The notes under the pieces: generated by a model
Databases searched by the model: none
Told to the model about the DNA's origin: nothing
Seen by the model: only the letters and a program-made list of their open reading frames with translations
NCBI RefSeq assembly: GCF_036588685.1
Contig: NC_086376.1
Location: 36,332,001-36,396,000, forward strand
Source: Mytilus trossulus
Taxonomy: Eukaryota
Direction: 5' to 3'
Length of the DNA: 64,000 nt
Program-made: the position numbers and the translations under genes
Shown here: piece after piece, positions 2,856 to 51,112 of the stretch
Layout: each line of letters opens with the position of its first letter
Position numbering within the stretch: position 1 is the stretch's first letter

Positions 2856-3580
2856 TTATCGGCGACCACCTCGACCTCTACCACGACCCCTGCTTCCACC
2901 ACGACCTCGTCCACGACCACGATATCCTTGATTTCCTCTGTCATGGTAGTCGTCTCCATACCCGTCTGCATTAAATTCTCCATTTCTCCCTTCAGATCTT
3001 CCATTATAATATTTGTAATCTTCCTGGCCATCGACACGTCCAGCCGAACCATTATTATTATTACTACCATCCCATTTATTTCCTCTTCCCCTAGCCGGGG
3101 ACTTGCTTTGAAAACCTTCCTCTGCCTGATGTTTATTTTGGTATCTCTTCGGACTTTTTTCTGCATGGAATTTGGCCGATGACGGTATATGTTGTTTGTC
3201 ATTCTTATTAGGGTTTCTTGTTTTCTCATTTGTCGTCTCCACTTGCATCGCTTTTTCCATACCCTTGTAACGACCTCTACGAGATTGTCCTTGGAAACCG
3301 CGGAAGTTTTCACTATTACTTTTGTTTCTCGCAGGATTCTTTAACTTCTTAAACGAATTCATATCTCCAACGTCTTCACTGAAATCAGCTTGTTTGTCTT
3401 TACAAAAAGTACTTCTTTTACCTCTAACAGTTGTCACCTTGGTCTTTTTATTGGTTTTTGCCGTTGGAAGTCCGTGTGTGACGAAACGTGGTCCATCATC
3501 ATACTGGAACTGTGTTTGTTGATTAACATTTCCCTTACAAATCACACACGAACTGTACATGATCGTTGATACAGCATGCC
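2856..3580 (-). CDS. ZNFX1: Terminal coding exon of the ZNFX1-like gene (second half of RZ-like finger plus RG/RGG-rich tail)
   Basis: Acceptor tcattttcAG|GG at 3582-3581 is phase 1 and matches the donor at 4253. The join reads WTICQNG-HAVSTIMYSSCVIC, restoring the W-x-x-C-x-N-G-H motif of ZNFX1 C-termini. Spliced CDS 6406+725=7131 nt (2376 aa), ending in RGRGRGRGGSRGRGRGRGGRR. Confidence 0.82.
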
Positions 3581-3764
3581 CTGAAAATGACAAACGAATA
3601 ATTTATTGTATGACAGATACATACATGTAGGTATATTTTATTTTAACTGAATTGGTATTTTACAATAGTTAACAATTTCATGAAAACAATTAATCTAAAT
3701 ACAAAACTGATATTAAAGACAAACATTTAAAAAAATCGATTTTCTTTATGGACTCTTTTTGGAC

Positions 3765-3875
3765 AGTTGTTCTCCATTCGTTTGATGTATTTCATTATTT
3801 GATTTTGCCATTTGTCTAGGAACTTTCCGTTTTGAATTTTCCTCGGAGTTCAGTATTTTGTGAATTTACTTTTTG
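3765..3875. repeat. Fragment of a high-copy interspersed repeat in the ZNFX1 intron
   Basis: The ...ccattcgtttgatgt...ttccgttttgaattttcctcggagttcagtatttt sequence recurs at about 29985-30090 and, inverted, at about 39075-39230. Confidence 0.7.
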
Positions 3876-4253
3876 TTATAGCTTTCCAAATATTTATTCT
3901 TATATGGGTATCAAAACATTTGGCTCCAAGTTCTCAAGACATGTAAATAAATTCGAGAAAAGCATATTTGATAAGAAAATACAATAATAATGTTAACGTA
4001 AACGTTGTTTTATGTTTCTGTGAAATTCTTTATCAAATTATAAATTATGCTTTTTTTTTTTTTTAAGAACTTAAGAATAATCTATTGTGAATCGCAAGCC
4101 TAGTCTGCAAAGAATTTGTTGTAAATATCAACTTTGTTGGAGCTTCGAACATGTCTTGTCCGTCCTGGACAATATAATTGCAACATAACCCTTCCAATGG
4201 AGTGCTAAAATAGAGTGTTATTACATAACATGATGTGATAAAAAAAATACTAC

Positions 4254-7200
4254 CATTTTGACATATTGTCCATTCGCTCTTATGTATGCCAAACACATTC
4301 TGTAATTGCGGATATCTTCTGGTATTTGTCAAGTATCCATCTCCCTCCATGTCAGCAATAAACGGTCTTAATATTTTATTTAGCTGCTCCCTTTTTAGAT
4401 ATTTCTTCATCAAGAGTACAACTACAACTATATCATGGCCTGTTATTGATAAATGACCATTAATGTCGGTAAATATGCCATCATTTTCTTCAAAAAAAGT
4501 TTCAATCGACTCCACCAGTTCTGGTGGGAAATCTTCTGATTTTTGTCTCACAGGCTCCCCTATGAATTCCGGAAACCAATCAGCATTATAGAATTTACTT
4601 AATAATTTTGGGTTTGTCGTGAAAAGGCACAATAGCCATTGGATATGCAAACTGAATATATTCTCAGACAATTGCAAGTAATCTTTAAATGATTGTGCAG
4701 TTTCAATATCGTTATGAATGCATTCGGTCAATTCCTCTGCATCTTGAAATTCTTTATCAAACCAATATGTTCGCCGTGTGTGCTGAACGACATGAAGATA
4801 TGTTGCAATGCTTGTTGTATACTCTTCGAATAATGGGAGCATTCCAGCATCACATGCAGGATACAACGTTTTGAAATTGATTCGTACGTTACGAACCACT
4901 TTTTTGGCATCTTCTAGTACCATTTTCTGTCTTTTCAAAATCCGTTCATATCTGGGATGATAATAGATAGTTGCATCACAGCATGGACATTCGGACAATA
5001 AGTCATTCTTCATTTTATCCATACAATCATCGAGAAAACTGCTTTCAAAAGAGTGACGACATTGTGTCAAAGTAACAATTTTACTGTCTTTAGTAACATC
5101 TTTACAAACAAACATTTCCGGTTTACAATCAACACACTTCAGTGGACATGGTTCGCCACAGTAACCAGGACATTGATGGCCGCAAGACAAAGTCTTATCA
5201 CAAACCTTATTGCAGCTTTGGTGATTGCACTCTTCAAAGCATAGTTTGGTACAACTATAATGTTTACATGCCCATGGACATTTTTCTTCACATGGCTTGC
5301 ATGGATCAATGCATTTAGAACGACATTTCGAATGGGCACATACAAATAAGCAAGACTTTTGGCACGGACTGCACTTCATGCACGTTTTACTTTGACAGGT
5401 ATGGCCACACGACATTTTTTTTCTGCATTGGCTTGTACATTCACTATGATCATTCATTCTGCTTGCATGACACGGCCCCGAACAAACATGTCCACATAAC
5501 ATAGTTTTTGCACACTTTTGATCACAAATTTCTTTTTTTGTATTACTGCATGCTACTTTTATAACATGGTTGCAGGAAAGAGTCTTGTCTATGACAACCT
5601 TGCATGGAGATAATTTTGTACTTTCTATTTTCCAACATGGTACAGATACAGTATGTCCACAGTCGTCACGCGTGTGTGTAACATCCTCTAAACATTTATT
5701 ATTTGGTAGAATCATACTTCTTTCCTGCCAGCATTTAACTTTAGCCGAATGCCCACATTTTTCCAATTTTATCTCAACTTCTGTGGTACATTTTACGTCG
5801 GAAACATTTACTGAACATAAAACTATTTTTCTATGCTGACACTCAGGCAAATACTTTAAGACTGCAAATTTACAAGGTACAGTTTCGGGGTTAATATGGC
5901 ATTTCATTTTCTGAGTATGGCCACATGAACTTAGAATTTTCTTCACCATTGATGTACACAGATATACCTTAGGGTCAGCTGAACATGGGATACTTTGTTG
6001 GTGTTTGCAACGTTCTAAAACAATTTTAATAAGCTGTTCGCAATCACAGGAAATTGGGAAATGACATGATTTCTTGCATTGGTGGTCATTTTTGCAAGTT
6101 TTGTTGCATGCGTCAGTACATTTAATTGAACTTCTTTTGTAACATTCGTGTGTCTTGGAATGTTTGCATTCAAAGACAGTTGTAACATTTTCTCTGCATT
6201 TAACCGATTCAACATCCTGATGGCACAGGAGTTTTATTTTATGGCCACAGAATGGGAATTCTTTTTCAACTTTCGCACTGCATTTGTGTTCATTGTGATA
6301 ATTCGTATCAGAACATTTCCTTTCATATTCATGACCGCATTTGACTCTTTTGTCTGGAATAACTACCTGACATGTGTTATTATGGACGTAGTTGGAATCG
6401 TAACAATGTCTTCTGTAGCTATGATCACACGATAACCATTGTTCAGTTACAATATCATTGCATCTATGAACCATCTCATACAATTGGTCATGGCACTGCT
6501 TTTGATATTCGTGCCCACATGATGTTCTTTTCATTGTTACAATAACTCTGCAAATAACGCGAATTTCAAAGGATGTATTATAACATTGCCGTTCAATCAC
6601 GTGGTCACAGGATGATCGTTTTTCGATTATCTGAACTCTACAAGGATTCAGCTTTTCAAAACCTGTATCATAACATTGGCGTTTAAACTCATGACCACAA
6701 TTTGATCGTGTTTCAATTAAGACTGTGTCACATTTGTGGCGTTTTGGATCAACATGACATTTTATGTGTGCTGTATGCCCACACTGTAGTTCTTTGTCAA
6801 CAATGGATTTACAGAGAACAGTACTTGGATCGACGCAGCATTCCATTAAAGCAGGATGCTCACATAATAATGTTCGGGTTACTTTAGTTGGGCATGGATA
6901 TTCAGAATAATCCAAATGGCACTCGAGATTGATCGTGTGATGACATTTAAGCTCTCGTGTCGTTATTGCACAGCATATACAGTCAGAATCAAAATGACAT
7001 CCCTTTGAACACCTATGCCCTTCTATGCATGTCTCCGAGCATTGTTTTAAGCATTCATATGTTGTATGTTCCTTGTCAAATGGATGACAATCGTATCGGC
7101 ATGCATGTCCACATTGTAATCGAAATTCACATGGAAGATCACAACCCCCATTTTTTACTTTCTTGAAGTCGCTAGGTAACTCTGCGAAAATTCCTTCGTT

Positions 7201-10200
7201 TGCTGGATGATTTTGACAGTACAGTGGTAGTGCTTTTCCAAAGGATGTGTATTTATGGAAAGCGTCGTTTTCATTATTGACGTCTTCTTCAATTTGTAGT
7301 TTTCTAATTATAGTCTGCCAGTGTTTAGACCTTGTTGTCAACGTAGAGCTGTTCCCTATTATAAAAAGTCCTTGTTTTGCTCTAGACAAAGCCACGCAAA
7401 TTCTGTTTTCCCGATTTAAGAATCCGATATCGCCTCTCGCATTGCTACGCACTAATGACAAAAGTATGATTTCATTTTCTTCGCCTTGATAGTTGTCAAG
7501 CACACATATATTTACTCCCTCGAATTTTGATCTTGGCATTTTTTCTTTTAAGCAAAACATCTGACCAGTGTATGCCGCAATTATTGTTATATCAGATGGT
7601 TTATATCCCTGCTTTAGCAAATAAAGACAAAGTTCCTTGAGGTATTCAGCTTCGTGTTCATTTGAATAACTTCTGCCTTCATCTTTGAAAGCTTCTTGTT
7701 TGTTATGTGTGATGAAGAATAAGCTCTTACGAATCCCTTTAATCGGTGGATATTCGTATACATTTTCGTTGTCTATAAGAACATCATATATATGGCGTAC
7801 CAATTCAGAAATTTCCGGTCTCATTCGATGCTGTTGCTGTAGACAATGGTAACTTAGGTCGTTCTTCACCATTCTTTCAAACAAAGACACAGATAAATTG
7901 AATTTTATGGCAAGCTCATGCACTGCTGGTTTTGGTTCCAATTGCTTATGGTCACCAATCAAAATTAAATGTTTACATCTTGGACTGATGGCAGTCACAA
8001 TGTGAGCCTCCGGTACTTCTGCCGCTTCTTCTATAATTGTGATTAGAGGTCCAACTTTGTTTAAGGATTCACTGTATCGTGCTGCATTGGTTGTAGTCAT
8101 AGCAATAACCGAAGCCTGTTGCATGATATATTCGTCTACTTCCATACTATTACGTTTGTAGTTGTCAAATACCTCATTAAATTCCTTAACACTGTCCTTC
8201 AGTTGTTCATGTAGTATAACAATGTATTGCCTTAACCAATACCTATACAGTTGCCAACGCTCCTTCATGGACAGTGTCCAGATATTTTGGATTTCCTTTA
8301 CTTGAAATTCTGACAAGTTTTCCCCATAATGCAATTCTTTTGTTGCTTTCTCTTTTTCCAGACGAAAAATAAGTTTAAATTTGTTTTCAAGCTTTTTTTT
8401 CTTTTTAAACTGAAATGAACTTTTGTATTGTTTGTCCAGATCGAGGCCTATTGAGTCTGGTTTACACATTAAGCCAACATCATCAACATCAATGTACCGC
8501 TCGTTGTAAGTATATTCTGCATCAGAAATCACTTTAGTAAACTTTTCTTCGTTAGGTTCAAGCGCCAGAATATTGAGCTGATCGTGGATTTCTTTGTCAG
8601 TTTTTTGGTTTTGATAGTATTTATCCACTTCTTTAAACCAGGAATCCGTTGACACATGTAGCCACTGCAACCATGCAGAACTTGTGTCATCTCCAAACTG
8701 ATTTGCATGATGTTCTGAAAGGACACATTCCACAACATTAAACCACAGAACAATATTTTTGCTTTTTAAGACGTCGATTGTGTCTTTAATCTTCTTTATT
8801 TTTCTTTTAACTGCACCTGCTTTATCAAGTACACCAACTCGATGATCATCAAAGTCCCATCGAACTTTTCTTCGTATGTTTTGTATCGAAAGCTGTTCAA
8901 GCTTAGGATTTTTACATTGGCGTCCAAATCTAACTACTCTGGGGAAACGACCATCAAATAAATTTTCTGGCAAAAAATCAACAATCCCTTCAACAAATTG
9001 ATCTAATGCATGGTTAGTGTAACAAACAACTAACATATATGGCTTCGGTAATGATGAAGGACCTTGATATTTTTCCTGTAAATCGCCATCCTCCTGAATA
9101 TCAGAATCCTCTTGTAACCATCTGTTACTATTATGCAGTAATGCTTTAGCAATTTGCAATCCAAGGTGAGTCTTACCAGTCCCGGGTGGACCTTGGATAA
9201 GCACAAACTCTTTTGTAAGTGCAGAAATAAATGCTTTTCTCTGAGATTCGTCCATTTGCAATATGCTTGTCGAAGGCCAGTCTTCCTGAAACATCTTTAC
9301 ATTAATTTTTGGTGTCTGTTTAGCAATAGTGTTTCTACGATTTAACCCATGTGTGTTTTCTATGTCAATGTGGCAACTTCGAATAATAGGTCTAAGATCA
9401 TACTCACAATCTTGTGATATGTATGATGGTATATTTACTTCTTTTTCACAATCAACAAGATATCGTTGGAAGGGGAAAGTGTCTTCATCTATGCATTGCA
9501 ATGCTTTGAGTACATGCTTGTACGCTTCAAAATATGCTGACGTAGGTTCTATCATCATACCATATGTATTTCGTGGCAGCTTTATGTTGGTTCCAACATT
9601 AAAAACTTGTACAGCAAAGCATCCTGTGTCTTTTAAAGCTTCTCGTTCACTTTCAGCTACTACAACGAAGAAAATTGTATTGAACCGATCAAACGAAACA
9701 AGCAATAATGTACCATAAATAAGTCTCTTTGATTTCATCCAGTTGATGCGTTTACGATGGTCTGGGTCTAGTTTTATTTCAAACACTTCGCCAGATTCTA
9801 TTGAAGTGCTTTGTTTCGTTACCAGCACGTCCCTATATACGAGACCAGTTTCTAATCTAAAAATTCCACTCCTACTTTCTTTATCTTTTTGTTTGAACTC
9901 CGTAAGAGCATCTCGGAGAGGTGACACACAGTCTTCCCTATACAACCTAAACTGTACATCTAAATAATGGTCTAAATACAAATATTTCCCATTAACTTTG
10001 TTTCGTCTTAAGAAATTTGCTGCATTTAATACGTCATTATGGCCAGGAATAACTGACATAGTTCGGAAATCCTCTGGAGGAACACATTTGTCTTCAGCGT
10101 CTTGTTTTGTCAAATGTTTTGGCTTTGGTCGTTCTTCACAAACCTTTAGTATATCCTTTTTCAATTCAGAAACAACGCTAAGCATCTTCTCTTTATCTTT

Positions 10201-10659
10201 GTATTCATCAAATTCGCTCACTTGTTCATTCAAAAAATCTACTAGTCCAATAACGTGTGGAGTTGTACACAAATGAGGCATGCATTGGAATAGTTCTTGA
10301 AGGATTGTTAAATAATCGTTAAGTAGACAATGAAAGTCATGATCACGTGTGTTATTGCATGTCACTCCTACAAGTAATGGAATGCTCCGGTGCTTTATTA
10401 TGGTTGAATCAGACAACATAATCAATAACTGAAAGACTTCCTGTTTTTTATTCGGATTCTCACAAGTAGAAGCCCTTGCAATAATATGGACAAGCAAGGA
10501 TACAAAATCGTCTGATAGTTTCTTCTTGTCTATCAATTTATCAAAAAAGTCCATCCTCTTGACCAATATCTCTAATAACTCCTCACTCTGTAGATATGAT
10601 CTGTATAAATTCACTATGAGATCTTCTGGTTGTATCTTGCCTGGACTTTTTGACGCCAT
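4254..10659 (-). CDS. ZNFX1: ZNFX1-like (NFX1-type zinc finger-containing protein 1) SF1/UPF1-like RNA helicase, main coding exon
   Basis: ORF 4063-10665 has ZNFX1-type motifs: YLDVQFRLYRED, SKRLIYGTL, AYFEAYKHVLKALQ, Walker A IQGPPGTGKT, VCYTNHALDQF, Walker B IIEEAAEV, LIGDHKQL, SLFERM, QHRMRPEI, LDNYQGEE, NRICVALSRAK. These are followed by about 24 CxH/C zinc-finger units and a CRHSF...CPCC...PRY RING-like module. First ATG is at 10659, just downstream of an acceptor at 10688-10687; phase-1 donor G|GTAGTA at 4254/4253. Confidence 0.93.
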
Positions 10660-10843: not shown

Positions 10844-12038
10844 AACTAGAGGCTCTAAAGAGCCTGTGTCGCTCACCTTGGTATATGTGACTTAAACAAA
10901 GGAAGCAGACAGTTCATGACAAACTTGTGTTTAGGTGATTGTGATGTGTTTGTACATCTTACTTTAGTGAACATTCTTGCTGCTTACTATTATCTATCTA
11001 TAATGAAATTGTCCGTGTAGTTTCAGTGGAAAATGACCAATTTGGTCATTTTACTTATTTTTGAGTCTTAAATTGCTGTACATTATTGCTGTTTACAGTT
11101 TATCTCTATCTATAATAATATTCAAGATAATAACCCAAAACAGCAAAATTTCCTTAAAATTACCAATTTAGGGGCAGCAACCCAACAACGGGTTGTCCCA
11201 TTCATCTTACAATTTCAAGGCAGATAGATCTTGATCAGATAAACAATTTTACCCCATGTCAGATTTGCTCTGAATGCTTTGGTTTTTAAATAATAACCAA
11301 AAACTGCATTTAATCTCCATGTTCTATTTTTAGCCGTGGCGGCCATCTTAGTTGGTTGGCCGGGTCAAAAAACACAAATTTAAAACTAGATACATCAATG
11401 ATGATTGTGGCCAAGTCTGTATTAATTTGGCTCGATAGTTTCAGAGAAGAAGATTTTTGTAAAAGATCATGGAGATTTACGAAAACTGGTTAAAAATTTA
11501 CTATAAAGGGCAATAACTCCTAAAAGGGTCAACTGACCATTTTGGTCATGTTGACTTATTTGTAAATCTTACTTTGCTGAACATTATTGCTGTTAACAGT
11601 TTATCTCCATCTATAATAATATTCAAGATAATAACCCAAAACAGCAAAATTTCCTTGAAATTACCAATTTAGGGGCAGCAACCCAACAATGGGTTGTCTG
11701 ATTCATCTGAAAATTTCAGGGCAGATAGATCTTGACATGATAAACAATTTCCCCATGTCAGATTTGAATGCTTTGGTTCTTGAGTTATAAGCCAAAAACT
11801 GCATTTTACCCCTATGTTCTATTTTTAGCCATGGCGGACATCTTGGTTGGTTGACCGGGTCAAAAAACACAAATTTTAAACTAGATACATCAATGATGAT
11901 TGTGGCTAAGTTTGGTTTAATTTGGCCCAGTAGTTTCAGAGGAGAAGATTTTTGTAAAAGTTAACGCCGGACGACGGACGACGGACGCCAAGTGATGAGA
12001 AAAGCTCACTTGGCCCTTCGGGCCCGGTGAGCTAAAAA
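10844..12038 (-). mobile_element. Non-autonomous Helentron/HINE-like element with internal ~500-bp tandem repeats
   Basis: Subterminal inverted repeats gctcacc (10871) and ggtgagc (12026). Terminal hairpin gctcacttggcccttcgggcccggtgagc next to an A run. (GACG)-type microsatellite at about 11965-11990. Two related internal units start at about 11035 and 11535. Second hairpin aggctctaaagagcct at the other end. Confidence 0.8.
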
Positions 12039-20779: not shown

Positions 20780-21241
20780 GATACTACAGGAAAACACACA
20801 GGGTCGCCTAAACCACCAATGATTAATACAATAATTAACTCGTCAACACCCGTACTAACAACAGTACCAGCAGCAACACCAACAACACCACCGACAACTC
20901 TAATTACCAAATCAACAACCATTCCATCGACAACTATAACAACCGTTCCATCGACAACTTCAACAATAAAATCAACAAAAGTACCATCTACAACTTCCAA
21001 AATAAAATCAACAACCGTTCCATCAGTAAGTTCAACAACAAAATCAACAACAGTACCATCGACATCTTCAACCACGGTACCATCGATCACTTCACCAACA
21101 ATAACAGCAACTGTACCACTGACTAATACAGAAACAAAAACATCAATAACTGTACCAGATTCAACTTCTGTACCAACTATAACAACAGTAAACAAATCAG
21201 ATATACCACCAACGACAGCAACGTCAAAATCTGAGCTAACG
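20780..21241 (+). CDS. Mucin-like type I membrane protein, exon 2 (Thr/Ser/Pro-rich ectodomain)
   Basis: Acceptor ttttcttAG|GAT, in frame with ORF 20819; degenerate KSTTVPS-like repeats; phase-0 donor ACG|GTAAGT. Confidence 0.85.
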
Positions 21242-23974
21242 GTAAGTTTATCTTTATTCTTTGTCATGTACGCAATTGTGTCGCAGAATCTTATACCAAA
21301 AGTGTTTTCGACCACCTTCGATCGCTTTAATTTTGTAAAAATCTTATAGTACATAAATTCAGCTGCGATACTTTAATGTATTTATAGATTGATAGTCTTC
21401 TTTTTTCGAAATAATCTTACTGTGATAAATTCGGTGAAAATCGGATACTAAATATTAAAACAAGTTGCTTTCTTTAAAAAAAAAAAAAAAAAAGAAAAGC
21501 AATACATGAACCTAAGACGGCTGACTGCCGGGTCACAAAAAGAGTGTTGCTGAATTTGTTTTTTTTCTTTTGCATTTAAATAATTGACTGTGAATAGAAG
21601 AAGCCAGTTGAAAGTATATATTTACAGCTTCTATTTGAATGGGCCGATTTGAATAGTCATTTTAAAGCCTAGACTATTATATTTATTACTTGGGAATGTA
21701 CATAATTTTTCCAATTATAACCCTTTGGCAAATTCTAATTTCTACTTACCGGATGACTTATGCAAATTACACAAACCTATCGCAATATAAATTTATGCTC
21801 TCAGTTTGTTTTATAATCTGGAATTCTGGATGCATTTATTTTATCTATCCTATCTTTATATTTTGTTTCCTACATGAATGCCTTTATACCCAACTCGTAT
21901 TTGAAGCTGTCTTTACTCATGGTAGATGTTTTATATGTGGTGAAACCTGTAGCATGCAATTTATTCGGACCTCTTGCGAACAGACTTATTTTGGTCTCAT
22001 AAAACATCTCAAATTTTAAGGATTTCCTGATTTTACTTAAATCAATTCAAACATTATACAGGGAAACTTAGTTTTGCCGAAGAATTCCTTAATTCAGAAG
22101 TTTATTAATACCTGTATACACTTTCAAAATAACCAATTTATATAAAAAGGTATGTAGATATAAAAAGATACCAGAATTAAAATGATGTACACAAGACACG
22201 AGTTAAGTCTAAAAAAAGCAACAGTGACGCTCGAATGAAAAAAGTTAAAAGGCTAAATACATAACAAAGTTTAGGAATCTATTCCTTGGGTAGATAATCC
22301 TTAGCTTTTCAAAAAGGTCAAAGTTTATAATAGGACAGTGACTCAAAAAGAAACAAAAGAGAAACAACTCGAGGTCAGAATACCTTTAGTAATGATGATC
22401 ATGCTTGAAAGTCACAATGTAAATCTCTTTCTGCCGTGTCTTGAATTTAGATAACAAAAACGAAAATAAGCTTTCACGAGTGAATCTAATAGTATTGCAT
22501 GCCAGTAGTATTTTAGAGCACGAAATAGTAAAAAGAAAGCATCTCACTGATACCCAGGAAAAGAATACGCATTTGCGTCAACACATATCTTAATATAATA
22601 GTTGAATTCGAATTGACATTTTATCCGGAATTTTTGACAACGCAAAACGATAGTGTGCTTTTGAAATGTGATCTATAATGTGAATGAATCAAGACGTGTA
22701 AGATAGTAGGTCAACACAATGAATACAATATTCAAAACCGTACCATAGTAAAAATATGTAGATGCTATAATGTTAAACTATTTTTATACAAACAAACAAA
22801 AATTGAATTAAAGTTTTTTAATGAACTAACGTTAGTTTTTCTTTTTCAAATTCTTTTGAATATATATAACATTAATAAACACGAACGTCAAGTATTTACG
22901 GATGGACATTGTATTTATCGAATGAATCTATTTCTAAATTATTACATTCCACTATGTGAATATATTACTATACAAAATATAAGCAAAATCAACTAAATCC
23001 ATACTAAAACAATATAAAATAATCAACATTATGGTTGTAATTAAATTTTGTTGTGAATATTGTAAATTATTTTTATGGTTGTTGTGAGCAGCAAGGATTT
23101 AAAATAATGCTTTATGAAATAAGAACACACAAGTGTTTTTATTCACGACCGTTTAAAATCTAAATATTTGATAAATTCATCTTACTTTCCGTTTTATGAT
23201 TATATTACAATACAAAAAAATAAAAATTATTACTAATCAAACCTAAAAACTAAAACGGTATGAGATAATAAACGTAAAAATATAATAATTATTGTTTGTA
23301 AACATTTTTTTTTGTAGGATGCAAGAATTTTATAAGATTTTATTTTTATTTTTCCTTTACAAATGAATATTTAAAAATACCAAAGCAGAGTATATTGTCA
23401 TATAAAATACTTATTCCTTAATTGCAACTCTGAAAATATTCTGATTTCAATCATTGTTAGTTTCTTCAGAAACATAAATACAGTTTATATTATATATATA
23501 TTTCTTTCATTCCGATTAAATTAAATACGTTTGATAAGAATATTATCTTTCTGTTTTCCGATCTAATATTAATAGTTTAACCAGTATGTTCTCCACGTAA
23601 GTCTATAATGAAATACACAGTCAGTATCCCGTGGTTAAATCTTCAAACATAATTAGTTAACATGTTATCGAGACAACGTTATAATTGACCCAGATACACA
23701 CATCGTACAGTAGTCGTTTTAAAACAGATATAATTGCGTCGTCAAGGGACATCACGGGACCATATCAAAGCCGTAGATAACAACCTCTTTAGACCTGTAT
23801 AAATGACAGAAAACTTTCGAGACGTTCCGAGAATTTTATTCTGACTTCCGGCTGAGAGATATCGAGTGGCCCATAGACACATCCAAAACTCACCAATATA
23901 TAAGCATGAACCCCTCAGGGGGTTCATGAAAAAAAAAAACCGGAATTACATAAAGGTTTGTTCTGATCGATCCA

Positions 23975-27539: not shown

Positions 27540-28046
27540 GTTAGTGCAACTATTACTGGTTCTACAAACACTCCATCACCAACACCAATGAAAATTCCGA
27601 CCCCTATCACTTCTCAAAGACCCCAAACAACAGATGGTACAGAATCAAGTGGAACAAGTACAGAAGAAACAAATAGCACAGTGGCAACTACAAGTACAGA
27701 AGAAACAAATAGCACAGTGGCAACTACAAGTACCAAGACAGCAACACTCAAACCAAGAAAAACAACTCATAAGTCGACAGTAACAGAAACGTCACATAAA
27801 CCGACAATGCCTACTAAAGGAACAACTGAAGCACAAAATGGGAGTAAGAGTAAATCTAAATCGTACGACAGAGAACTTGTTATAATATTCGGTGTTATGT
27901 TAGGACTAATGTTTGTTGTCATTGTTATTTTTGGAATACATAAGTGTCGCCATAGAAACAAAGAATCGGACGATTTACCAATGTCGTCTGCGGACAAATA
28001 TAGAAACGGTGGAGAGGACGTTACCATAGCAGCATCTTCGTTTTGA
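27540..28046 (+). CDS. Mucin-like type I membrane protein, exon 3 (Thr-rich stalk, TM helix, short cytoplasmic tail)
   Basis: Phase-0 acceptor AG|GTT at 27538-27540, in frame with ORF 27588; 36-nt tandem repeat TSTEETNSTVAT x2 with NST sequons; TM LVIIFGVMLGLMFVVIVIFGI followed by HKCRHR; ends AASSF-stop. Three-exon product is 346 aa. Confidence 0.85.
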   Translation, partial: VSATITGSTNTPSPTPMKIPTPITSQRPQTTDGTESSGTSTEETNSTVATTSTEETNSTVATTSTKTATLKPRKTTHKSTVTETSHKPTMPTKGTTEAQNGSKSKSKSYDRELVIIFGVMLGLMFVVIVIFGIHKCRHRNKESDDLPMSSADKYRNGGEDVTIAASSF

Positions 28047-28986: not shown

Positions 28987-30889
28987 TTGCCAGACATTGG
29001 CATGTCAAGTTTCCATTACATAAAAAGTCCATTTTACTACAATGTATCCATTGACTGATCCGTTGACGATTTACGAATCTCTCCATTGCATAAACATACC
29101 TACAGTTCTAAAAGAAACCAATGTTTAGGAAAGACGCGTGTCTCAAACTGAATTTGTATTGTGCAGTTTGTTCTCGCATTATCATATTAACTCTTAACAG
29201 CATATATCTTTTAACGTTAACTTTGTTTAGAAATGCATTTTGTATGCTTTTAAAAATTACAGTACAAAATGTGTACACAGTGAAATTGAATACTAGTATT
29301 ATATAAGTAATAAAATAACATATTTACATTGTTTTTTTTCATTATCCATGATTTCAAAAAATCTTTTAATCCCACACAGTTTTGTTGCATAAAACATGTT
29401 TGATAGAACTTTGCACGCTTTAATATTTTGTAAGTGTATTGAAGAACACCGTAAACGATCTTAAACGAAAAACGAACTTCGAAAACAACACAATGAAGAT
29501 GCACATTTGATACCTTATCCTTTCGTTTCAGATAATCACTCAGAATGAAAATATAAAAAAAACCAATCTGTAAATGTAGTATGTATTATCTTTTATCACT
29601 TATGATTTAATAACAAGATTACAAAATAAAGGTCTGTTTCTGTAATTACTTCTAACATAACTTTTGATTTTATAATCCTGCATACCACCGGTCTCCACTA
29701 GATTTGAATAGACATCGAACGACAAAATTTCTTTTGATTTGATCTATATACTTTTTGTGTTTTTTGTATATGTTTGTTTTTCTTGAGATTGTAACGCAGC
29801 GATGACTGCTCTAACCATATTTTGACTATTTAACCGATTAGTTCTGTTTTGTTCGCGCATCGTTTTAAAAATAACAGAAATTTGATGCGACTGTCACAAA
29901 AGTGAGACGTTAAGCGCTATAAAACCAGGTTCAATCCACCATTTTCAACATTTGAAAATGCCTGTACCAAGTCAGGAATATGATAGTTGTTGTCCATTCG
30001 TTTGATGTGTTTTCTCCTTTGATTTTGCCATTTGGTTAGGGACTTTCCGTTTTGAAGTTTCCTCAGAGTTCAGTATTTTTATGATTTTACTTTTTTCGTT
30101 ATAACGACATCAAAATAAAACTCCACCCTGACACTCACAAGCCGCACCGTACGATCGCGCTTGACTCTAATCTTAAATGACTTGGGATTGTATGTTTTCC
30201 TACCAATGGTTGTGGTTCTCTTTAGGCTCTGACTTTCTGCCAACAATAAAAACTGTCTGTTACGTAATAGCACAAAACTGCGTAGGGCATTGAACTACAA
30301 TAATCAATCAATCTAGATCTGGATACAATCTAACTTTTAATGTTATTGGCTCACAAGCTATTTCATGCTTTCATTTTTTTCCCCTAATGTTAGGTTTTTA
30401 TGAAATGTTAAAAAATATATAAGTAGTGCAATGAAACATGACACATTGGCAACATGAATTTATTTTAATTTTATATACAAAAATAGTATGTACATATAAT
30501 AGTATGCAATATGATTGTCTTTTTATTGTTGCTTTTGGTATCGTATAAATATATTCAATCTGCTTCATACTGGATATTTAATTATATATATTTTGGCCAC
30601 TTTTGCCATCGCTGCTAAAACTGACTAGGAACATTACATGTACAGCGCAGGCCAAGTCATAACTACACAAAGATTAACCTGAGTATATCAAACTGTTTTG
30701 AAAATAACATACATGCACCAAAGATCGTCTTTTGAAAATATAAACATGCATGTGTCACACAATAAGTTTTTATCTAAATTAAATTATCTTCAACATTCTT
30801 CCTACTACATCTATTATATTCGGAGGTATGCACCAAAGATCTTCATTTGATAATATGAATCGTATTTTTATCAAACAATCAGAATGTTG

Positions 30890-33800
30890 TTAATTTTGGG
30901 AGTCTGGTGGATTGTTATTTTCATCCATTTTTATTCGATATCGGTTACGTCTGGCGTTTGATGTTTTTGGTTTTGGTGCATTTGGTGGCATAGGATTAAA
31001 TTGTGCAGGTGACATATGAATAGTTTGTGTCTTGATATTCGTTCCAGAAAGGACTTTTATAATTTGCCAATTTGAAGACAGAGTTTCTGTTGGTTGACTT
31101 TGGTTTCCGTTCGTTATGCAATCTGGAATAAGTTTTTTCACAAATGTTTTCATGGCTGATTTCAATGTACCACCATTTTCTCCTGCACCTTCAAAATCGC
31201 CTATTGTACTTTCTGAGCTCGAGCTTTGAATGTCATCTAAGGTATCACTTATGCTTTGAATGACTGCAATATACTTATCATGCAGTTTCTTAAATACTTC
31301 TATCGCTTTGCTGTAACTCATATTTTCGATGACAGGAAACAGATCTTTTTCTTGCACCTGATAAAACCCAATCAGTTCGTTATCATCCAGTTTGTTAAAG
31401 ATGTCTTCAGTTGGATATGTATCACCCACTGCAATATCCATCATAGTACGATCATATTGGTCTTCTTCACTGTTGCTGACTGATTTTTCTCTTTCTATCT
31501 GCTCTCTTATATTCTCAAAAATCTGCTCTGGTTCTGGTTTTGACATTTTATTGGAAGCTATTGTCTCATTGGCCTGCTGTTGTTTTGATTTAGACATTTT
31601 ATGTGACGCTGTTGTCTCATCAGTCTGCTCTGGTGATGATAAAGGCACTGATTTCACAACTTCACTTTTATCTTTCTTTTCATTACTCATCTTTTTTACA
31701 ATTAACATCTTTTTCAAATTTAGTGACCAAGTATGAACTTGATCTGGTTCTGGGTAGCTGTCCGGGTTTTCTATATATGTTTGCTTTTTGACATCCTTTT
31801 TCTGTCTTTCTCTGGCACAATATTTTCCAGTAACGATTTTGCATACTTTTTCAATTTTGCTTTTAGGTATATAGCAACATTTATCAGATGCCTTATGTAG
31901 CCTGGAAAATCGGTACTTTCTCTCAGAGATGTAGCGATCTTTACTAGATGTCTTTTGCAGCCTAAAAGTTGGAAACTTATTCTCCCAGTTTATCCTTTTC
32001 AAAGCTAATTCTGAGTTCATATCTAAAGCTCCACCGTTTGTTGTTGTCTCATTGGTTTTCTGTGGAGCTGATATTGACGTTGATTGCGTTGGAATAACTT
32101 CACTTTTCTCTTTCTTTTCATTATCACTTTTGCTTTTAGGGATAAAGCATTTTTCATCAGATGAAAGATGCAGTCTTGAAAATCGGTACTTTCTATTACT
32201 GGCGTAGTTAATTTTACGAGATGTCTTTTGCAGCCTAAAATTTCTATATTGATTTTTCCATTTTGGCCTTATAGAACCTAATTCTAGGCTCATATCAAAA
32301 ATTTCATTGGAAGCTGTTGTCTCATCTGGTTGCTGTGGTGCTGGTTTAGACATTGATTCTGTTGACATATGTTTACTTTTATCTTTCTTTTCATCTCTGA
32401 TCTTGTTTACAATTAATTTCTTTTTGGAGTTTTGTGGCAAGTGCTGCAATGGTGGAAGCAGTTTGTGAGTACCAGGGCGATTAGTGAAGGGGTGTTCTTG
32501 CACGCATGTTTGCTCTTTGTCAGGAAACACTGGTGGTAGTTTAAGAGTAGTTTCATGTAGTTCTTTCGCGTATATCATCTTCTTGTTAGGTAACAATGGT
32601 TGTCGTTTTAGAGTCTCTGAGTATAACTCTTCCACGTATTTAAGATTCTTGTTTGGTAGCAGTAGTGGTAGTTTTACTGGAGTAGAGGGATACTTTTCCT
32701 CGTATTTCATTTTCTCCTTACCTAGCAATTGTGGCAGTTTTACTGTAAGAGAAATTTTCGATCTCTTAGCATGCTTTTGGAGCTCGTTCCTTTGTGTCTC
32801 CTCCTTTCTAGAATAATTTTCAGTTTCCTTGCTTTTCATAGATAGTTCAAACATCTCATACTCAACTTCAAGTTCATGATTCAGGAAACTCAGTTCTGAC
32901 TCGGATCTACGCAATGTGCAGCAAGAGTCAACACACTCGCCTGTAATGCACTTGTCGGATTCTAGTATATTTTCATGGATTGGTGTCATTACACGTGTTC
33001 TACCAGTTCTCCCAATATATAATGTGGTGTCATCAATAATGACAGCGTTGGCTTCGGTCATTTTTCTTTTATACTTGTTTAAGCTACCATTTGAAGAAAT
33101 CAGAAGTTCCTCGTTGAACAGTTGGTTATGTTCGCGTTTCACGTGAAGAAGGAATTTTGAAAAAGGATTTTGAATTCTTGAGCGGTTGCTCCTTTCAATT
33201 GTTTTGTAAACATTTTTCAGGGTTTTCTGTTTATCAAGAAAAAACTGTTTCTGTGTCCTTAAGTAATGAAGCCTTTCTTTCATGGAGATTTGTAAATTGT
33301 GCATGCATCGCTTCATGACATGTCTGTCAGCCTCAATAAAATCGATCCATTGCTCTATTTCTTGCCTCAGCCTATTCTCGGAAAGTTTGCTTGGTTGCAT
33401 GTTTTGTAGCTTGTTGGAGGTTGTATGGATTGCTTCCTCTTTTTCTTGAATTAAACACTTCCAGTTGGCAAGCAATCTGAAATCATGTTTTATTTTCGTT
33501 CTTAATGTAATGTATAACGATTTGCTACATAAAATAGAGCTCCTAGTATATAACATTATTTCCTCACATAAATCAGTTGTATATATAGAACTGGACTATT
33601 ATCATAACACCAAAATGTAGTTGCTAAATTTACTAACCCATTAAAAACAAAAAGTATGGGCATTTCTAATTTACGATTCTAAAGTAGTGATAATACAAAT
33701 ACGAATGCCAAACCATTATATAATTTTACGTCTTTCTGTGCTGGAGGTATATATCAGTGTCTCTTTTTTTAAGTTTTTGTAAATTTCATTTACATTGACA

Positions 33801-36653
33801 GGAACTACAACGACTAATTAGCACTTATTTATAACCCGGGGAGCTCAGTAGAAAAGATATGGAAACTGACTAATTAGTATGTTATCGTTAATAGCCCTTT
33901 GTGACCATGTGCGATGCCGCCGTCATAAACTGACCAGACATACTTCTTATCAATCACGTGGTTTTAATCGAGACAGCTTAACAATATTACCTGTCGGAAA
34001 ACACTTTTACTTATGTCAATCGCGTCGGTAGACCTTTATTCGTGAACAACTTATTTAAGCAAATCGACTTATGCATAAAAAATGAAAATCGGCCCAGAAT
34101 TAACTAGTCTACAACGATTTGAAATAGTGAGTGACATTATTTTATTATTTTGTGGGTGAAGTTTAAATCGCGATTAAGGTGTGTTCCGGTTACCGCCGGT
34201 TAACAATAAATATATTTGATCAATATTAAGACTGTGAAGTTTATAGTAATATATATGGTTAAGTTACTGGATAATCCTGGAAAGTAGAAATTTCCAGTTT
34301 ACAATACGAAAATTAATCGACCAAGTCGAAAATTTATCGAACAATAAAATACAGCAGAGGAAAACAGAGAACTATAACTACGTTATATAGCTAATTATGC
34401 AATTATACATTTATTTTCCATAAAATATGTTATCACTATCCGACCAAATGAAACCGTCCAAATGATACTGGTAAATAATAAGTGGACAGTCGCACAAGAA
34501 TTTGCATAATGTCACCATACAAATCCTCGAGTACCATTACTAAAAAAAAAATCAACACATCGGGGTTCGCCGCTGAACATTCGTATATACTAACCTATGA
34601 TCTTACCCTGGATTTAGAGCAAAGCTTAATAATTCCTACATTTATCTAAAATCTCTTTGATCTTTTTATTTTATCAGAACGATTATTTACAATCGTCTTA
34701 AATATGCAGGAAATGTGTGCCACTCGATCAGTGGTGTAAACACGGTAGTTATCATATAAACACAACTTATCGTCAAAATTCTACCGAACAATAAATCAAT
34801 TAAAATATGGGCATTTATTCAATAAATTTGATACAAATTTCCATCGTAAATGTGTTTTATTAAAGAAATAATGATGACTCGCATTAATCCATCAGTCACT
34901 CAATCGGCACACATATGCAGATGTAAGGTAACGGAATCTGCCGAGGTTTTCCGATTGCTGTTTCCTGAGAATTTATAACAACTTTCGATTTCCTCGTTTA
35001 TTTCCGTAATCCCGAAAGCAGCCGATAATGACAATATTGTTGGCCACCAAACACTGGTATGTAAAGAACGTGCCATGTTTCAAGCTAATTAACATGTCAT
35101 TAAATTGCGCGCGGCATCGCAGATGAAACGTTTGAAGTCGAGTCGTAGTAGTTCCTGTCAATATAATACTTCCATGGTTTGACATTTCATATCCGTTTTG
35201 TTAGGGTTTTGTTTGTCGAAGATATATCATTGTCGTAAGGATGTGGCAATACGGTACATATTGCTGTACTTTATGGTTTTGGGACTACTTTTTTTCACAG
35301 ATAATTAAATTTGATATTGTCTCATATTCTGTATTTGTTTAAAGATAAACTATACTTACTCATTCCCTGTCCTGTTTACGTATTCCACTGTGTCATACTC
35401 TATCTCGAATTTTTGGCTTCTTCTTGATCCGACTACAAAATACACAAATCTTTGTATTAGTTAATGATGTGGTGTGATGATCTACATTAGACAATCCACA
35501 TTTTGCAACCAGTCTGATACATTGTCATCGTTTATTTCTGTTCGATTTTGCAATTTGAATAAATGAGTTGGAAATATATAATAATGACCCTTCCTTTTTT
35601 AGATCTGCCAATGCAGGTTATAGGAATGGGGATATCCATGCTGTTCTATATTGTAATTCTTTTCGTCCTTTCGAAAAGTTATGACTAATTGTAATTTTTT
35701 TTATGATTGTCACATTTAAACTACTTGATCGAAATCAAAACACATAAACGCATCGGAATTCCGTTCTCATTAAATGGTCATCTAAACGAACCAACAGTTA
35801 CTGTATTCAATTAAAACAAATAGTCCGTTGTTAAATGTACCGAAAAGGGAATAACACGCTACGAAGTGGCTCCTTAAACTTACTTCTTTCTGTTCTCTTC
35901 TTGTGCACAGTCTGCTTTGTAGGTGCCATATTTTCGACTTTCTCACTACAAAAGATAGAAAAAATAAGTTTTCACATTTTCTCAGCTAAAAAAGAAAGCA
36001 ATCACCCGTATAAAGGAAAGATGTTTTGTATAACGGAGGCATTATGTTTTAATATTGGGTCAAAATAGACTGTTTGCTGGACAAATACGGAGATATAGTA
36101 CCTCGTTAATCAAAAGTTCCAGATTTCTTTACAGTACTTTATATTCCTTATCAGGCATGATTATATTAATTATTATGTTTTAATAAATTTCTGTTTTATA
36201 ATCATGCCAATAAATTACTTTGGGCCACAGCTTTAAAAAACCTACAATTTACAACGTATTTATTTTTTTCGTTCAAATCTTTTTTTTATTAAATCCCATC
36301 ATTATACTAAGATCCAGTAGTAGTGGTTTCTGAATTTCAAATGTCACTTTGATTTAGTTGCGGTCAACGTTTAAAGCGCTGGGTTTGATTTTTTTTTACT
36401 AGTTACTAGAGTGGCATCCTTATGTTGCAATATTTTGATTCGTTTTCTAGCAAATTAGATAACTTTAATCCAACTACCCTTGTTAGGCTGCATATGGTTC
36501 TATTTATACAAATAATAATGGTAATAAAGTTTAAACTAAACATTTCGAACATTAAAGTACAGTTCTATATTTCTTAAATATGTATACATTATTAAAATTA
36601 GCATAAATTAATGTTAGATATGCTTACCGATCCTTCTTCGTTCTTTCTCCCAT
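30890..36653 (-). CDS. Uncharacterised Lys-rich repeat-containing protein, paralog A (4 coding exons: 36653-36628, 35945-35884, 35432-35360, 33476-30890; 915 aa)
   Basis: GT-AG introns with matching phases 2,1,2 give MGERTKKDR-EKVENMAPTKQTVHKKRTER-IGSRRSQKFEIEYDTVEYVNRTGNE-LLANWKCL...; in-frame TGA upstream of the ATG; exon sizes 26, 62, 73 nt conserved in paralog B. No family recognised. Confidence 0.85.
33793..35163. mobile_element. TIR DNA transposon derivative (~1.37 kb, TA-flanked) in intron 3 of paralog A
   Basis: TA|CATTGACAGGAACTACAACGACT ... AGTCGTAGTAGTTCCTGTCAATA|TA; absent from the matching site in copy B (about 48620); no transposase ORF. Confidence 0.85.
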
Positions 36654-38836
36654 AATTTCTCGTATTCACTGATTAAAATAGTTAGATATTTGTTCTCTTC
36701 TTTTATAATCACTGCTTACTGCGACAGATAAAACTGTGTAGTGAGGAATATGAGGTGCCGTCACTTTGACAACGTTTCTTCTATTATGACGTTGCGCTAC
36801 CGCGACCTTTACAATACATGCAATCTGTTGTACTGCAACGCACATATTAGATTTTACGTTTGTCAAGTAAATTTTGTAAATGTTGTACATTATTGCAAAA
36901 GTTTTTATCTGCGGACAATTCACCTATCAGTGATATAAAGAAAATACGAAAATCGGTCGCGGATTCAGACATTTAGGAAAGGGGGAATTAATCCCCGAAC
37001 CCCCTAATTCATCCGCCAATAAAAATGGACACTCGCAAACCATAACTCTATTAAAACAGACAATGCCATGAGAAAACGAAAACCAATTACAAGTAAATAA
37101 AAGTTGAAAACATTACAAAGAATGCTAAAGGAACAGCCCGAATTCCACAAAAACTTAATTGGTGCCGTGGTATTACTGTAATTTTCATCGGTTCCGAATT
37201 TTGATAAAGATACACAAATGTTTTGATTAATTTTATTTCTTTTACTTTTTCTTTTATTTAGGTTAAAAATTTGATTAAAAACTAACGTTGGTTCGTAAAC
37301 AAAATGCGTCTTTCATATTTCATTCTTGCAAAATAATAATTTAGTAGTATATTTGCCGCATACGGTCATTGCGTAAATATAAAACTATGTTATTCTTGCA
37401 TAATTTATCTTGGCATGATACTTTATAACGGGAGGCTGGTACTTGATTTTCATATGAAGAAGTCATAATCTTTTGATCAGTTAAATTGAGTTCTTTTTAG
37501 AGCTGGCATGTCAGTAACTGCCAGTAGTCCTTTAATAGTTCATGTCGATTCATGTTGATCATTGTCATTTTGGTAAGTTACTTCCGTTACATATTTTAAC
37601 ATCGGACTCGGACTTCATTTAAAAAAAAAGAGTTTTACTATGTGTATTTCTGTGTGTTTGTTTACTAAGTATTCCACATTGGCTAGAGGTACATGTATAC
37701 GAGTGGGTTGAGATGTCATAAAACCCGCCTTTTTTTTGCCTGTTCCAAGTCAGGGACCTCTATCCTTCGCTAGTCTTGTGTGGTTTTAGATTTTTGTTCA
37801 TTTAAGATTCGGAGTTTAGTGTTGCGTCCTTTCTGTGAATTAGTATATAATATTTTAGGGGTAGCTGTAGACCGCATCTGGATGCTTAATTTGGTCGCTG
37901 CATTGAAGACCCTCTGGTGACCTTGGGCTATTTTGTGCTCTTTCGTCGGGTTGTTGTCTCTTTGAAACCTTCCCCGTTTCCATTCTTGATTCTATAAGAA
38001 GATGTGTGTCAATTTGACAATCTTTAAACCAGAAACAAATGATGTTATAGTTAACAACGAAAGACCTTCAATAATGAGAGCAAAACACAATATATTCAAG
38101 GACCCGGGATGAAAAATGCAAAATAAATTATAACTAGAAATCTTACTAAAGCTAAAGTTTTAAACGAAAGTATATTAAATTTGATATATTAGAGAAATCT
38201 GTATTTTCATTTCTTTGAATTTTGATGAAAATAAGAAATGATACTTAATTTATTATTCAAACAAGTGTGGACACAGATAAGTTTGACTAGTACGTTTAGG
38301 TGTTTTCCGGTGTTTTCTGTTTCTCTGCCCCACCAATAGCGTTCTATAATAAACTGGTTTGCCAAGTGACAGTCAACTTATACTAAACACTGAAAGTTGC
38401 GTTTTATTATTCAATATATATGAGAAGATGTGGTATGAGTGCTATAAAATTACAGTTTGTTCTTTTACTTTACGTTACAATTTCATTAAGCTAAATATTT
38501 TATAACGTATGTCATGGTTGGTATTCTGGTATCGGTAATGATATTCTGGCATAATGTTGAGATCTTCTGTTGAATCAATCTTTCAGCTAGTTAAGGGAGA
38601 ACATAGGTATATATATTTCCCGAGATTGAATTTTCTATTACTTTGCCAAAGTGAAGATTGTGCTATGTTTTTTTTCAAAAAATATAATCAGTAGTATGGG
38701 TCACCGTGCTTTTTGGCAAGCTATGAGTCGTTGAAAATTTTCTAGATTTGGTTAGATCAGGAACATTTATATTGACCTGGTTAGATTGTTCATTAAAACA
38801 CATTATATTGTGAGAAGATATGTTATAAGAAAGTAC

Positions 38837-50373: not shown

Positions 50374-51009
50374 AATTTTTCGTATTCACTGATTGAAATA
50401 ATTCAATAATGGTTCTCTTCTTTTATAATCACTGCTTACTGCGACAGATGAAACTGTGTAGTGAAGGATGGGAGGTGCCGTCACTTTGACAACGTTTCTT
50501 CTCTTGTGACGTTACGCTACCGTCGCAGCCTTTACAATACATGCAATATTTCAACGCACACATTAGGTTTTACGTCTGTCAAGACAGTTTTGTAAATTAT
50601 GTACAGTACTGCAAAAGTTTTCATCTACGGACAATCCACATATCATTAATATACAGAAGATACGAAAATCGGGCGCGGATTCAGACATTAGGAATGGGGG
50701 AATTCATCCCCGGACGACATAATTCATCCGCCAATAAAAATGAGCACTCACAAACCATAAGTCGATTAAAACAGACAATACCATGAACAAAAAGAAACCT
50801 ACAAAAAATACAAATTAAAGTCGAAAACATTACAAAGAATGCTCAAGGAGCAGCCCGAATTCCACAAAATTTTAATTTGTGTCGTGGTATTACTTTTATT
50901 TTCATCGTATCCGAAATTTTATAAAGACGCACAAATTAACTGATTTGATTTCACACAACCGTTTTGATTTGATTTGATTTCTTTTACGTCTACAATGCTT
51001 TGTTTTCGT

Positions 51010-51112
51010 AGTTGGTTCGTTCGTTCGTTCGTCGGATGGTTGGTTCTTTGGTCGGTTCGTTCGTTGGATGATTGGTTCGTACGTTCGTTCGTTCGATCTT
51101 TGTTTGTTCGTT
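51010..51112. repeat. Imperfect (GTTC/GTTG)n microsatellite
   Basis: gttcgttcgttcgttc tracts, more extensive than at the matching position in copy A. Confidence 0.75.

Follow-up and report, generated by a model that had tools for sequence, protein, structure and literature searches.

Can a ZNFX1 helicase whose RZ finger has lost its catalytic loop still transfer ubiquitin, and what might it do otherwise? The question is raised by a minus-strand ZNFX1 paralog in a 64,000-nucleotide stretch of the Mytilus trossulus genome (hereafter the window). Three studies from 2025-2026 link the antiviral action of ZNFX1 to ubiquitin transfer activated by RNA, but differ over the share contributed by the Z-RING alone. 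Human ZNFX1 (PDB 9q9z; bioRxiv 10.1101/2025.09.05.674436 and 10.1101/2025.10.14.682297; PMC13710534) has a second ligase module, the Z-RING/Miz, which stays active in vitro in C1860 mutants and in an RZ-free fragment. Removing the RZ favors the K63 route; in cells both modules are needed, and turnover is driven by the RZ. C. elegans ZNFX1 has no RZ, remains functional and, in germ granules, works alongside a Tudor/LOTUS partner protein.

The window ZNFX1 paralog is an expressed gene. Its large coding exon (4254..10659, minus strand; residues 1-2135 and base 1 of Gly2136; delimited by ORF, Pfam, PDB match and the RefSeq protein) is separated from the terminal exon by a phase-1 GT-AG intron of 673 nt (3581..4253, minus strand), with the GT donor at 4253 directly after base 1 of the Gly codon and the AG acceptor ending at 3581. 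Joining 10659-4254 to 3580-2856 yields an open frame of 2376 aa, identical to the existing M. trossulus RefSeq model XP_063433330.1. Exactly this 673-nt stretch is skipped in the contigs of 8/8 runs (4/4, then a further 4/4), evidence that consists of assembled contigs rather than raw reads and comes from six studies, with one run recorded as RNA-Seq and the others guessed to be RNA or unlabelled. Among the contig pieces listed for these eight runs, none spanned the whole intron. The sequence-only reading had thus placed the intron correctly and had rightly noted that the ORF track conceals it; the splice is hidden solely from that track, because the RefSeq model already includes it. A pseudogene or mis-splice is ruled out by the 2376-aa frame, the junction in all eight runs and a helicase dN/dS of about 0.1. 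A high-copy repeat piece lies within the intron at about 3798-3859.

Building the finger across a splice junction, which that reading had treated as a special feature, proved to be the family norm, and the splice position was discarded as a novelty. The intron interrupts the same codon in 12/12 ZNFX1 loci found in the M. trossulus genome, and 29 contig-called proteins, both RZ-intact and degenerate, break at the same W-x2-C-x2-G (31 pattern matches, 29 of them true). Nor did we find an alternative exon restoring the catalytic loop: of 20 genome-wide PF20173 matches none lay on contig C4, and a six-frame scan of the window returned eight loose H-[IV]-Y matches, none with a catalytic Cys or CxxC-IGG.

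The encoded protein has the features of the ZNFX1 family, namely a UPF1-like SF1 helicase and a ZNFX1-specific domain. It matches the Pfam families ZNFX1, AAA_11 and AAA_12 (PF25396, 71 bits; cut-off 27), and its best PDB match is human ZNFX1 9q9z (E 4e-189). The large exon encodes, in order, an ARM region, the helicase, an NFX1-type finger stalk, the Z-RING, a helical bundle and the first RZ half, an order shared with the human protein. The Cys/His-rich stalk (about residues 1160-1830; 5170..7182, minus strand, boundaries approximate) is expanded and longer than in human ZNFX1, and the whole protein contains 135 Cys vs 80-95 in five RZ-type paralogs of the same genome. Stalk and Z-RING/Miz fold are recognizable by their Cys/His repeats and by C-x-H...C-P-x-C, and the structure model of an ortholog is confident there, including the Z-RING. 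Searches with this 804-residue model used methods insensitive to small zinc modules: Foldseek returned no matches at E 0.001 or better, and a wide structural aligner retrieved generic helical bundles alone (best Z 9.1). A single-sequence fold of the region from the Z-RING to the junction was unusable (mean pLDDT 39.8).

The RZ finger reads W-x2-C-x2-G/H-x9-C-x2-C, the slash marking the junction. Its first half (4254..4311, minus strand) comprises the clade-specific Pro2117 and His2126 followed by W2130-x2-C2133, and its second half (3537..3580, minus strand), recognized by profile-profile matching, is H2137-x9-C2147-x2-C2150. The four putative zinc ligands C2133, H2137, C2147 and C2150 (human C1849, H1853, C1869 and C1872) are kept, whereas equivalents of the nucleophile C1860 and of the general base H1881, which follows IGG in the human protein, are absent. 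The loop has 9 residues and no Cys, against 15 residues in RZ-intact paralogs, and no IGG-x2-H follows the window finger, all as first read from the DNA. At the position of human I1835, in the ubiquitin-binding helix, lies Leu2119, and the preceding E-R motif is replaced by Y-P. In the alignment to RZ profiles proposed at the outset, the clade finger matched intact RZ fingers by profile-profile comparison (probability 93%, E 2.6e-7), whereas the window finger failed the Pfam PF20173 model at E 1e-4. Compared with the PF20173 family (RNF213, ZNFX1), it retains the position, the W-x2-C-x2-G-H...C-x2-C frame and the intron position, but lacks the nucleophile, the general base and IGG and has a newly invariant Pro and His upstream. 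Judged by these residues, the window RZ site cannot carry out Cys-based transfer.

This is, as the sequence-only reading had supposed, a subfamily rather than one broken gene. The degenerate finger occurs in 6/12 M. trossulus ZNFX1 paralogs, which are tandem-expanded, and the degenerate paralogs form one clade (SH-aLRT 98) with members in mussels, scallops, oysters and an ark clam, a taxon range that rests on the best 120 of 3011 homolog matches. Every one of the 29 scorable clade sequences combines the four zinc ligands and a loop of 9-10 residues with loss of the catalytic Cys and His; 17 further sequences, truncated or unspliced at the RZ, were left unscored. In two Saccostrea proteins the loop does contain a Cys, which lies at positions 3-4 and is out of register.

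Loss of the RZ alone does not make a pseudo-ligase, the conclusion first drawn from it, because the human Z-RING/Miz is still active without it and an RZ is missing from C. elegans ZNFX1; the idea becomes plausible because the E2-facing residues of the Z-RING are degenerate as well. In the window copy (residues 1835-1905; 4945..5157, minus strand) the single zinc site is kept (C1867, H1869, C1891 and C1894 for human C1591, H1593, C1619 and C1622), with Val at the position of F1575, Cys at the RING-Trp position and Asp1895 at the linchpin (human Q1623), where R, K or Q would be permissive. The F1575 region, an E2 contact, was mapped by counting: Val lies at -16 and Phe at -17 from the first zinc Cys, Phe occupies -16 in one M. 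edulis ortholog (P0266), and an aromatic residue lies between -19 and -14 in 31/46 clade sequences; the register is uncertain because the clade loop is about four residues shorter. The [FLW]-G-x-E loop containing the F1575 equivalent was found in 0/46 clade sequences, against 35/35 RZ-intact proteins and 8/12 RZ-less proteins outside the clade. The RING-Trp position is W/Y in 10/46 clade vs 33/35 RZ-intact sequences, the linchpin K/R/Q in 17/46 vs 30/35, and both together in 6/46 vs 28/35, counts in which near-identical orthologs are not collapsed and a few genes appear twice, as genome locus and as database record. The six include two M. trossulus paralogs, one of which has Tyr and Arg at these positions. 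These marks are not absolute, because a second RZ-intact set has the loop motif in 18/24 and K/R/Q in 18/24.

Could the clade nevertheless be a RING-only ligase, in which the Z-RING activates a possibly different E2 and K63-biased chains cluster RNA without self-degradation, a mode proposed for C. elegans ZNFX1? We regard this main rival as possible but doubtful. The human C1860 and RZ-free results and the shift toward the K63 route argue for it, as do the six sequences with both permissive residues and a Z-RING core that is kept in 45/45 aligned clade sequences (zinc ligands, C-P-x-C, L-D and R-Y invariant or nearly so) together with a new invariant His-Pro. However, clade sequences vary freely at the E2-facing positions but not in the core, the loop motif expected of such ligases and kept by most RZ-less outsiders is missing throughout the clade, and the linchpin is Asp or Gly in the window copy and most orthologs. 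In RNF38, the R454D substitution weakened E2-Ub binding 28-fold, and trace activity remained with R454E (PMC12326332); XIAP with a Glu linchpin was only marginally weaker than wild type. The window Z-RING is likely weak or dead.

Within the SF1 (UPF1-like) helicase core (residues 468-1104; 7348..9258, minus strand; motifs and Pfam), Walker A K496, catalytic E878 and the RNA-binding F1080 and R1086 are all present. Together with Y315 they are identical to human K625, E1007, F1210, R1216 and Y450, and His914 occupies the position of human Y1043; the mapping was made by hand from the alignment, F1210 and R1216 by motif spacing. The EEAA Walker B is also shared with human ZNFX1, and an acidic segment lies where the plug helix is expected. 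Helicase motifs are near-invariant across the clade, and pairwise dN/dS among tandem paralogs is 0.09-0.14 in the helicase and 0.28-0.73 in the Z-RING. As far as sequence can tell, the helicase motifs of the window protein are intact and under strong purifying selection, in agreement with the initial description of an intact helicase.

We considered whether the clade serves as a brake or, as the sequence-only reading had suggested, a decoy, co-assembling through its ARM with RZ-intact ZNFX1 to damp ubiquitin transfer in trans or to absorb viral antagonists. Degenerate and RZ-intact paralogs do coexist in the M. trossulus genome, but clade members share about 30-35% identity with RZ-intact proteins, only 2/5 human ARM-ARM interface residues are identical (by hand on the human alignment), and strong helicase constraint would be needless for a mere decoy. 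We consider this unlikely.

Our leading reading, held at roughly even chances, is that the window protein, its RZ dead and its Z-RING weak or dead, binds and collects RNA as a helicase and attaches no ubiquitin of its own. Such a protein would bind RNA in an ATP-dependent manner, as human ZNFX1 does, and its remaining finger and Z-RING may cap the helical bundle structurally. It would escape the K48 chains that human ZNFX1 builds on itself, the turnover route of that protein, and may be long-lived.

What could hold RNA together in place of ubiquitin chains? The window protein ends in a basic, low-complexity tail of 226 residues with 14 RG dipeptides, the last of its sequence being an RG repeat just before the stop codon (2856..3536, minus strand). 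This tail, encoded in the exon of the second RZ half, had been overlooked in the first reading. The RG-rich region is C-terminal rather than N-terminal, and the N-end of the window protein is short; both short N-end and long tail set it apart from human ZNFX1. At least 10 RG occur in the tails of 17/21 full-length clade proteins, with at most one at their N-ends, and RZ-intact proteins have at most one RG in the tail (30/30). The tail is covered by transcript-type contigs and, in the ortholog model, is predicted to be disordered (pLDDT under 50, residues 584-798). It may provide multivalent RNA contacts, as K63 chains do in human ZNFX1 condensates.

RG repeats are Tudor ligands. The tail could dock Tudor-domain proteins in a small-RNA or germ-granule helicase that has left ubiquitin-based antiviral defence, much as the RZ-less C. 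elegans protein acts in germ granules. However, tandem expansion to six copies and dN/dS of 0.3-0.8 outside the helicase appear more immune-like, and mussel contigs named at the level of NFX1-type respond to Vibrio in hemocytes; we hold this reading to be very unlikely. C. elegans ZNFX-1, compared by description rather than sequence, is likewise naturally devoid of RZ catalytic capacity, but its RZ is wholly absent and its Miz activity is thought to be kept, whereas the window protein keeps the zinc knuckle and has an eroded Z-RING face.

Extending the ubiquitin-free helicase reading, we tentatively propose, at well below even chances, an ancient bivalve ZNFX1 branch in which both ligase routes are off, the zinc modules are re-tuned as a new surface, the RG tail replaces ubiquitin chains as RNA-trapping glue, and the gene has expanded beside a ligase-active form. 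The re-tuned surface would comprise the invariant His-Pro in the Z-RING and the Pro and His before the finger. We found no description of RZ-degenerate bivalve ZNFX1 in the literature, where Blasi et al. 2022 (metazoan ZNFX1) and a Cell 2025 split-site paper may bear on it. With a dead RZ, a constrained helicase and RZ-intact paralogs in one animal, the clade offers a natural experiment. Its Z-RINGs range from near-canonical (two M. trossulus paralogs) to strongly altered (the window copy), and a comparison of these paralogs would reveal which abilities of ZNFX1 are independent of ubiquitin. This bears on the antiviral immunity of farmed mussels, oysters and scallops, in which all ZNFX1 copies are annotated alike.

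RZ-degenerate ZNFX1 proteins that have lost the catalytic Cys and kept the zinc ligands also occur in frog and ray-finned fish, unionid mussels and abalone. Tree tests rejected a single origin of all RZ losses for the vertebrate group (AU p 5.5e-5) but did not reject common ancestry with the unionid group (p 0.68). With the unionid constraint the tree gained 10.9 log units over the free quick tree, so the quick search was incomplete. The data suggest repeated RZ inactivation with a retained zinc knuckle among animals, a vertebrate paralog included. Unlike members of the clade described above, most of these other proteins retain the Z-RING loop motif, and their tails are short.

The minus-strand open frame of 2207 codons carries Pfam ZNFX1 and SF1 helicase domains, has human ZNFX1 as its closest solved structure and is a member of the ZNFX1 family. 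A search of 1.8 billion representatives returned 7 matches at E ≤1e-30 and 371 at 0.001, the strongest being sequences of the RZ-degenerate bivalve type discussed here. A phase-1 intron of 673 nt (minus strand, GT donor 4253, AG acceptor 3581) is exactly skipped in contigs of 4/4 runs and 4/4 further runs from six coded studies; this evidence consists of contigs throughout, with only one run recorded as RNA-Seq, and carries no measure of expression level. The spliced product of 2376 residues is identical to the Mytilus trossulus RefSeq protein XP_063433330.1 and contains a finger of the pattern W-x2-C-x2-G/H-x9-C-x2-C (slash, splice point), followed by a C-terminal tail of 226 residues with 14 RG dipeptides. 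The sequence-only reading described splice and finger accurately. It had also singled out the finger as built across a splice junction; the junction is real, but its position is ordinary for the ZNFX1 family. When the other 11 of the 12 ZNFX1-domain matches in the genome were retrieved and compared with the window locus, 12/12 had the donor in the same Gly codon, after its first base; downstream exons began at the His, and 29 database proteins called on unspliced contigs, intact and degenerate alike, end at the same break point. An acceptor-like site 27 nt 5′ of the start codon makes a further upstream coding exon, so far unseen, possible; a Met at the same place in six paralogs speaks against it. 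A high-copy repeat lies just upstream of the gene (10844-12021) and within the intron (3798-3859).

The available text of three reports (10.1101/2025.09.05.674436, 10.1101/2025.10.14.682297, PMC13710534) describes zinc binding in human ZNFX1 by C1849, H1853, C1869 and C1872, with C1860 as nucleophile and H1881 as base. Equivalents of the four ligands are present in the window copy, whereas those of C1860 and H1881 are missing, so Cys-based ubiquitin transfer by its RZ finger is almost certainly gone, judging by these residues. The proposed step from a dead RZ finger to a pseudo-ligase is insufficient alone, and the Z-RING had to be examined, because the same sources report human C1860 mutants still active in vitro through a second module, Z-RING/Miz, and a C. 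elegans ZNFX1 without RZ. As described there, human Z-RING/Miz contacts the E2 through F1575, with Q1623 as linchpin, and its chains are K63-biased, while RZ chains are K48 and drive turnover. One study found that auto-ubiquitination in cells required both modules; in the other, C1860A retained half of the antiviral delay.

Six of the 12 genome loci have the degenerate finger: four clustered on contig C4 (including the window copy), one elsewhere on C4 and one on C14. The remaining six comprise four apparently intact loci, one without the distal His and one broken. The sequence-only reading had also offered a decoy subfamily, and the genome does hold apparently intact copies; we nevertheless consider a decoy role towards intact ZNFX1 paralogs improbable. 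Three loci on contig C3 are notable. At L039 the catalytic Cys remains, but the distal His is missing and Ser occupies the F1575 position. L040 carries both a frame break and an in-frame stop within the finger. L037 (74064695-74067181) is an RZ-intact gene followed by two candidate last exons; both encode the catalytic Cys and His, and they may be alternative terminal exons or the result of a partial duplication. L047 and L048 (C4, 36.27-36.31 Mb) differ at synonymous sites by 0.20-0.27 in the gene front but by 0.04-0.07 from helical bundle to tail, a drop suggestive of gene conversion between these tandem copies.

Judged from helicase trees, the degenerate finger marks a clade. A helicase-core search found 3011 proteins, and the analysis covered the best 120; 51 rows cluster with the window copy on a 139-row tree (FastTree support 0.98), and in a 55-row subset a single branch sets 21 selected members apart (SH-aLRT 98; quick search, no bootstrap), with a Solemya protein as sister (support 88). 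Among the best 120 of 3011, named clade hosts are five Mytilus species, four scallop genera, Saccostrea oysters and the ark clam Tegillarca, bivalve orders that separated several hundred million years ago. The catalytic Cys is absent and the loop is 9-10 residues long in 29/29 clade sequences with a scorable finger, a further 17 being truncated or unspliced at that place. Pfam PF20173 has no match at the window finger. A profile of intact fingers matched the degenerate site best in 23/25 clade proteins, with weak scores, and profile-profile comparison of clade and intact fingers gave a probability of 93% (E 2.6e-7). In an alignment-based structure prediction for a clade ortholog, the finger is folded (pLDDT 84-93) and the tail disordered. 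The window finger is RZ-derived yet outside the catalytic RZ definition.

Within the clade the Z-RING keeps its zinc ligands and core, but its putative E2 face is not conserved. The [FLW]-G-x-E loop occurs in 0/46 clade sequences, 35/35 RZ-intact proteins and 8/12 RZ-less proteins outside the clade, a count that excludes 21 proteins without a parsable Z-RING. At Z-RING position +12, which we take to be the RING-Trp position, W or Y is found in 10/46 clade versus 33/35 RZ-intact sequences, a K/R/Q linchpin in 17/46 versus 30/35, and both together in 6/46 versus 28/35, the rows behind these Z-RING counts being non-independent. The window copy has Val at the F1575 position, Cys at the RING-Trp position and Asp at the linchpin. 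Glu is tolerated at the linchpin of XIAP, which counts against Z-RING inactivity. In RNF38, by the available text of PMC12326332, linchpin Asp lowered E2-Ub binding 28-fold and linchpin Glu left trace activity. Several observations speak against an altered E2 face: the loop register is uncertain, with an aromatic nearby in 31/46 clade sequences, and one M. edulis ortholog has Phe exactly at the F1575 position. The loop motif is also weakened as a discriminator by its presence in only 18/24 of a second RZ-intact set. A ligase working through the RING only is conceivable but rather unlikely; the window copy probably has little or no ligase activity. An intronless, full-length UBE2D-type E2 gene (contig C1, 71286938-71287348) would suit assays as cognate E2.

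Helicase motifs are near-invariant in the clade, and the window copy has equivalents of K625, E1007, F1210, R1216 and Y450 and an acidic segment at the expected plug-helix place. Among the four clustered paralogs, the helicase has pairwise dN/dS values of 0.09-0.14, the Z-RING 0.28-0.73, the finger region of 43 codons 0.29-1.27 and the tail 0.59-0.82, short regions being noisy. New invariant residues have arisen in the clade: His1901 (45/45), Pro1902 (44/45), Pro2117 (43/43 ungapped sequences) and His2126 (42/44). Clade tails span 129-395 residues. At least 10 RG occur there in 17/21 full-length members, with no more than one RG at the N-ends of these proteins; RZ-intact proteins have at most one tail RG in 30/30 and at least four near the N-end in 15/30. 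We infer every functional step of the following mechanism and give it an even chance: the window protein would bind and move on RNA as other ZNFX1s do and add little or no ubiquitin, would hence be stable, and would use its RG tail for RNA-dependent assembly. A small-RNA granule helicase seems improbable, slightly more so than the decoy.

Loss of the catalytic Cys with all four ligands kept recurs in a frog and ray-finned fish paralog, unionid mussels, abalones, a beetle and others. The AU test assigns the vertebrate group an origin separate from the clade (p 5.5e-5) and is compatible with a common origin of clade and unionid group (p 0.68). The vertebrate paralog (P0012, frog; P0110, bowfin; P0128, halosaur) combines a degenerate RZ finger with an intact Z-RING loop and is a candidate natural RING-only ZNFX1. 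The available text of PMC11959080, PMC9334734, PMC7773633 and 10.64898/2026.05.15.723513 holds nothing on domain loss, and we found no description of the RZ-degenerate bivalve clade in literature whose scope left aside the one metazoan ZNFX1 review covering bivalves. Mussel NFX1-type contigs, paralog unnamed, are among Vibrio-responsive genes in the available text of PMC6697025.

Elsewhere in the window, a segmental duplication (30164-38228 versus 45081-52036, identity 82-94%) carries a long minus-strand open frame in each segment (30893-33595, 45840-48392) with no convincing Pfam match. On the plus strand, 59793-60911 holds an exon of a TRIM-like gene with RING, B-box and coiled-coil, and two mucin-like Thr/Ser-rich frames (20780-21349, 27540-28046), each with a hydrophobic segment at its end, resemble membrane-protein stalks.
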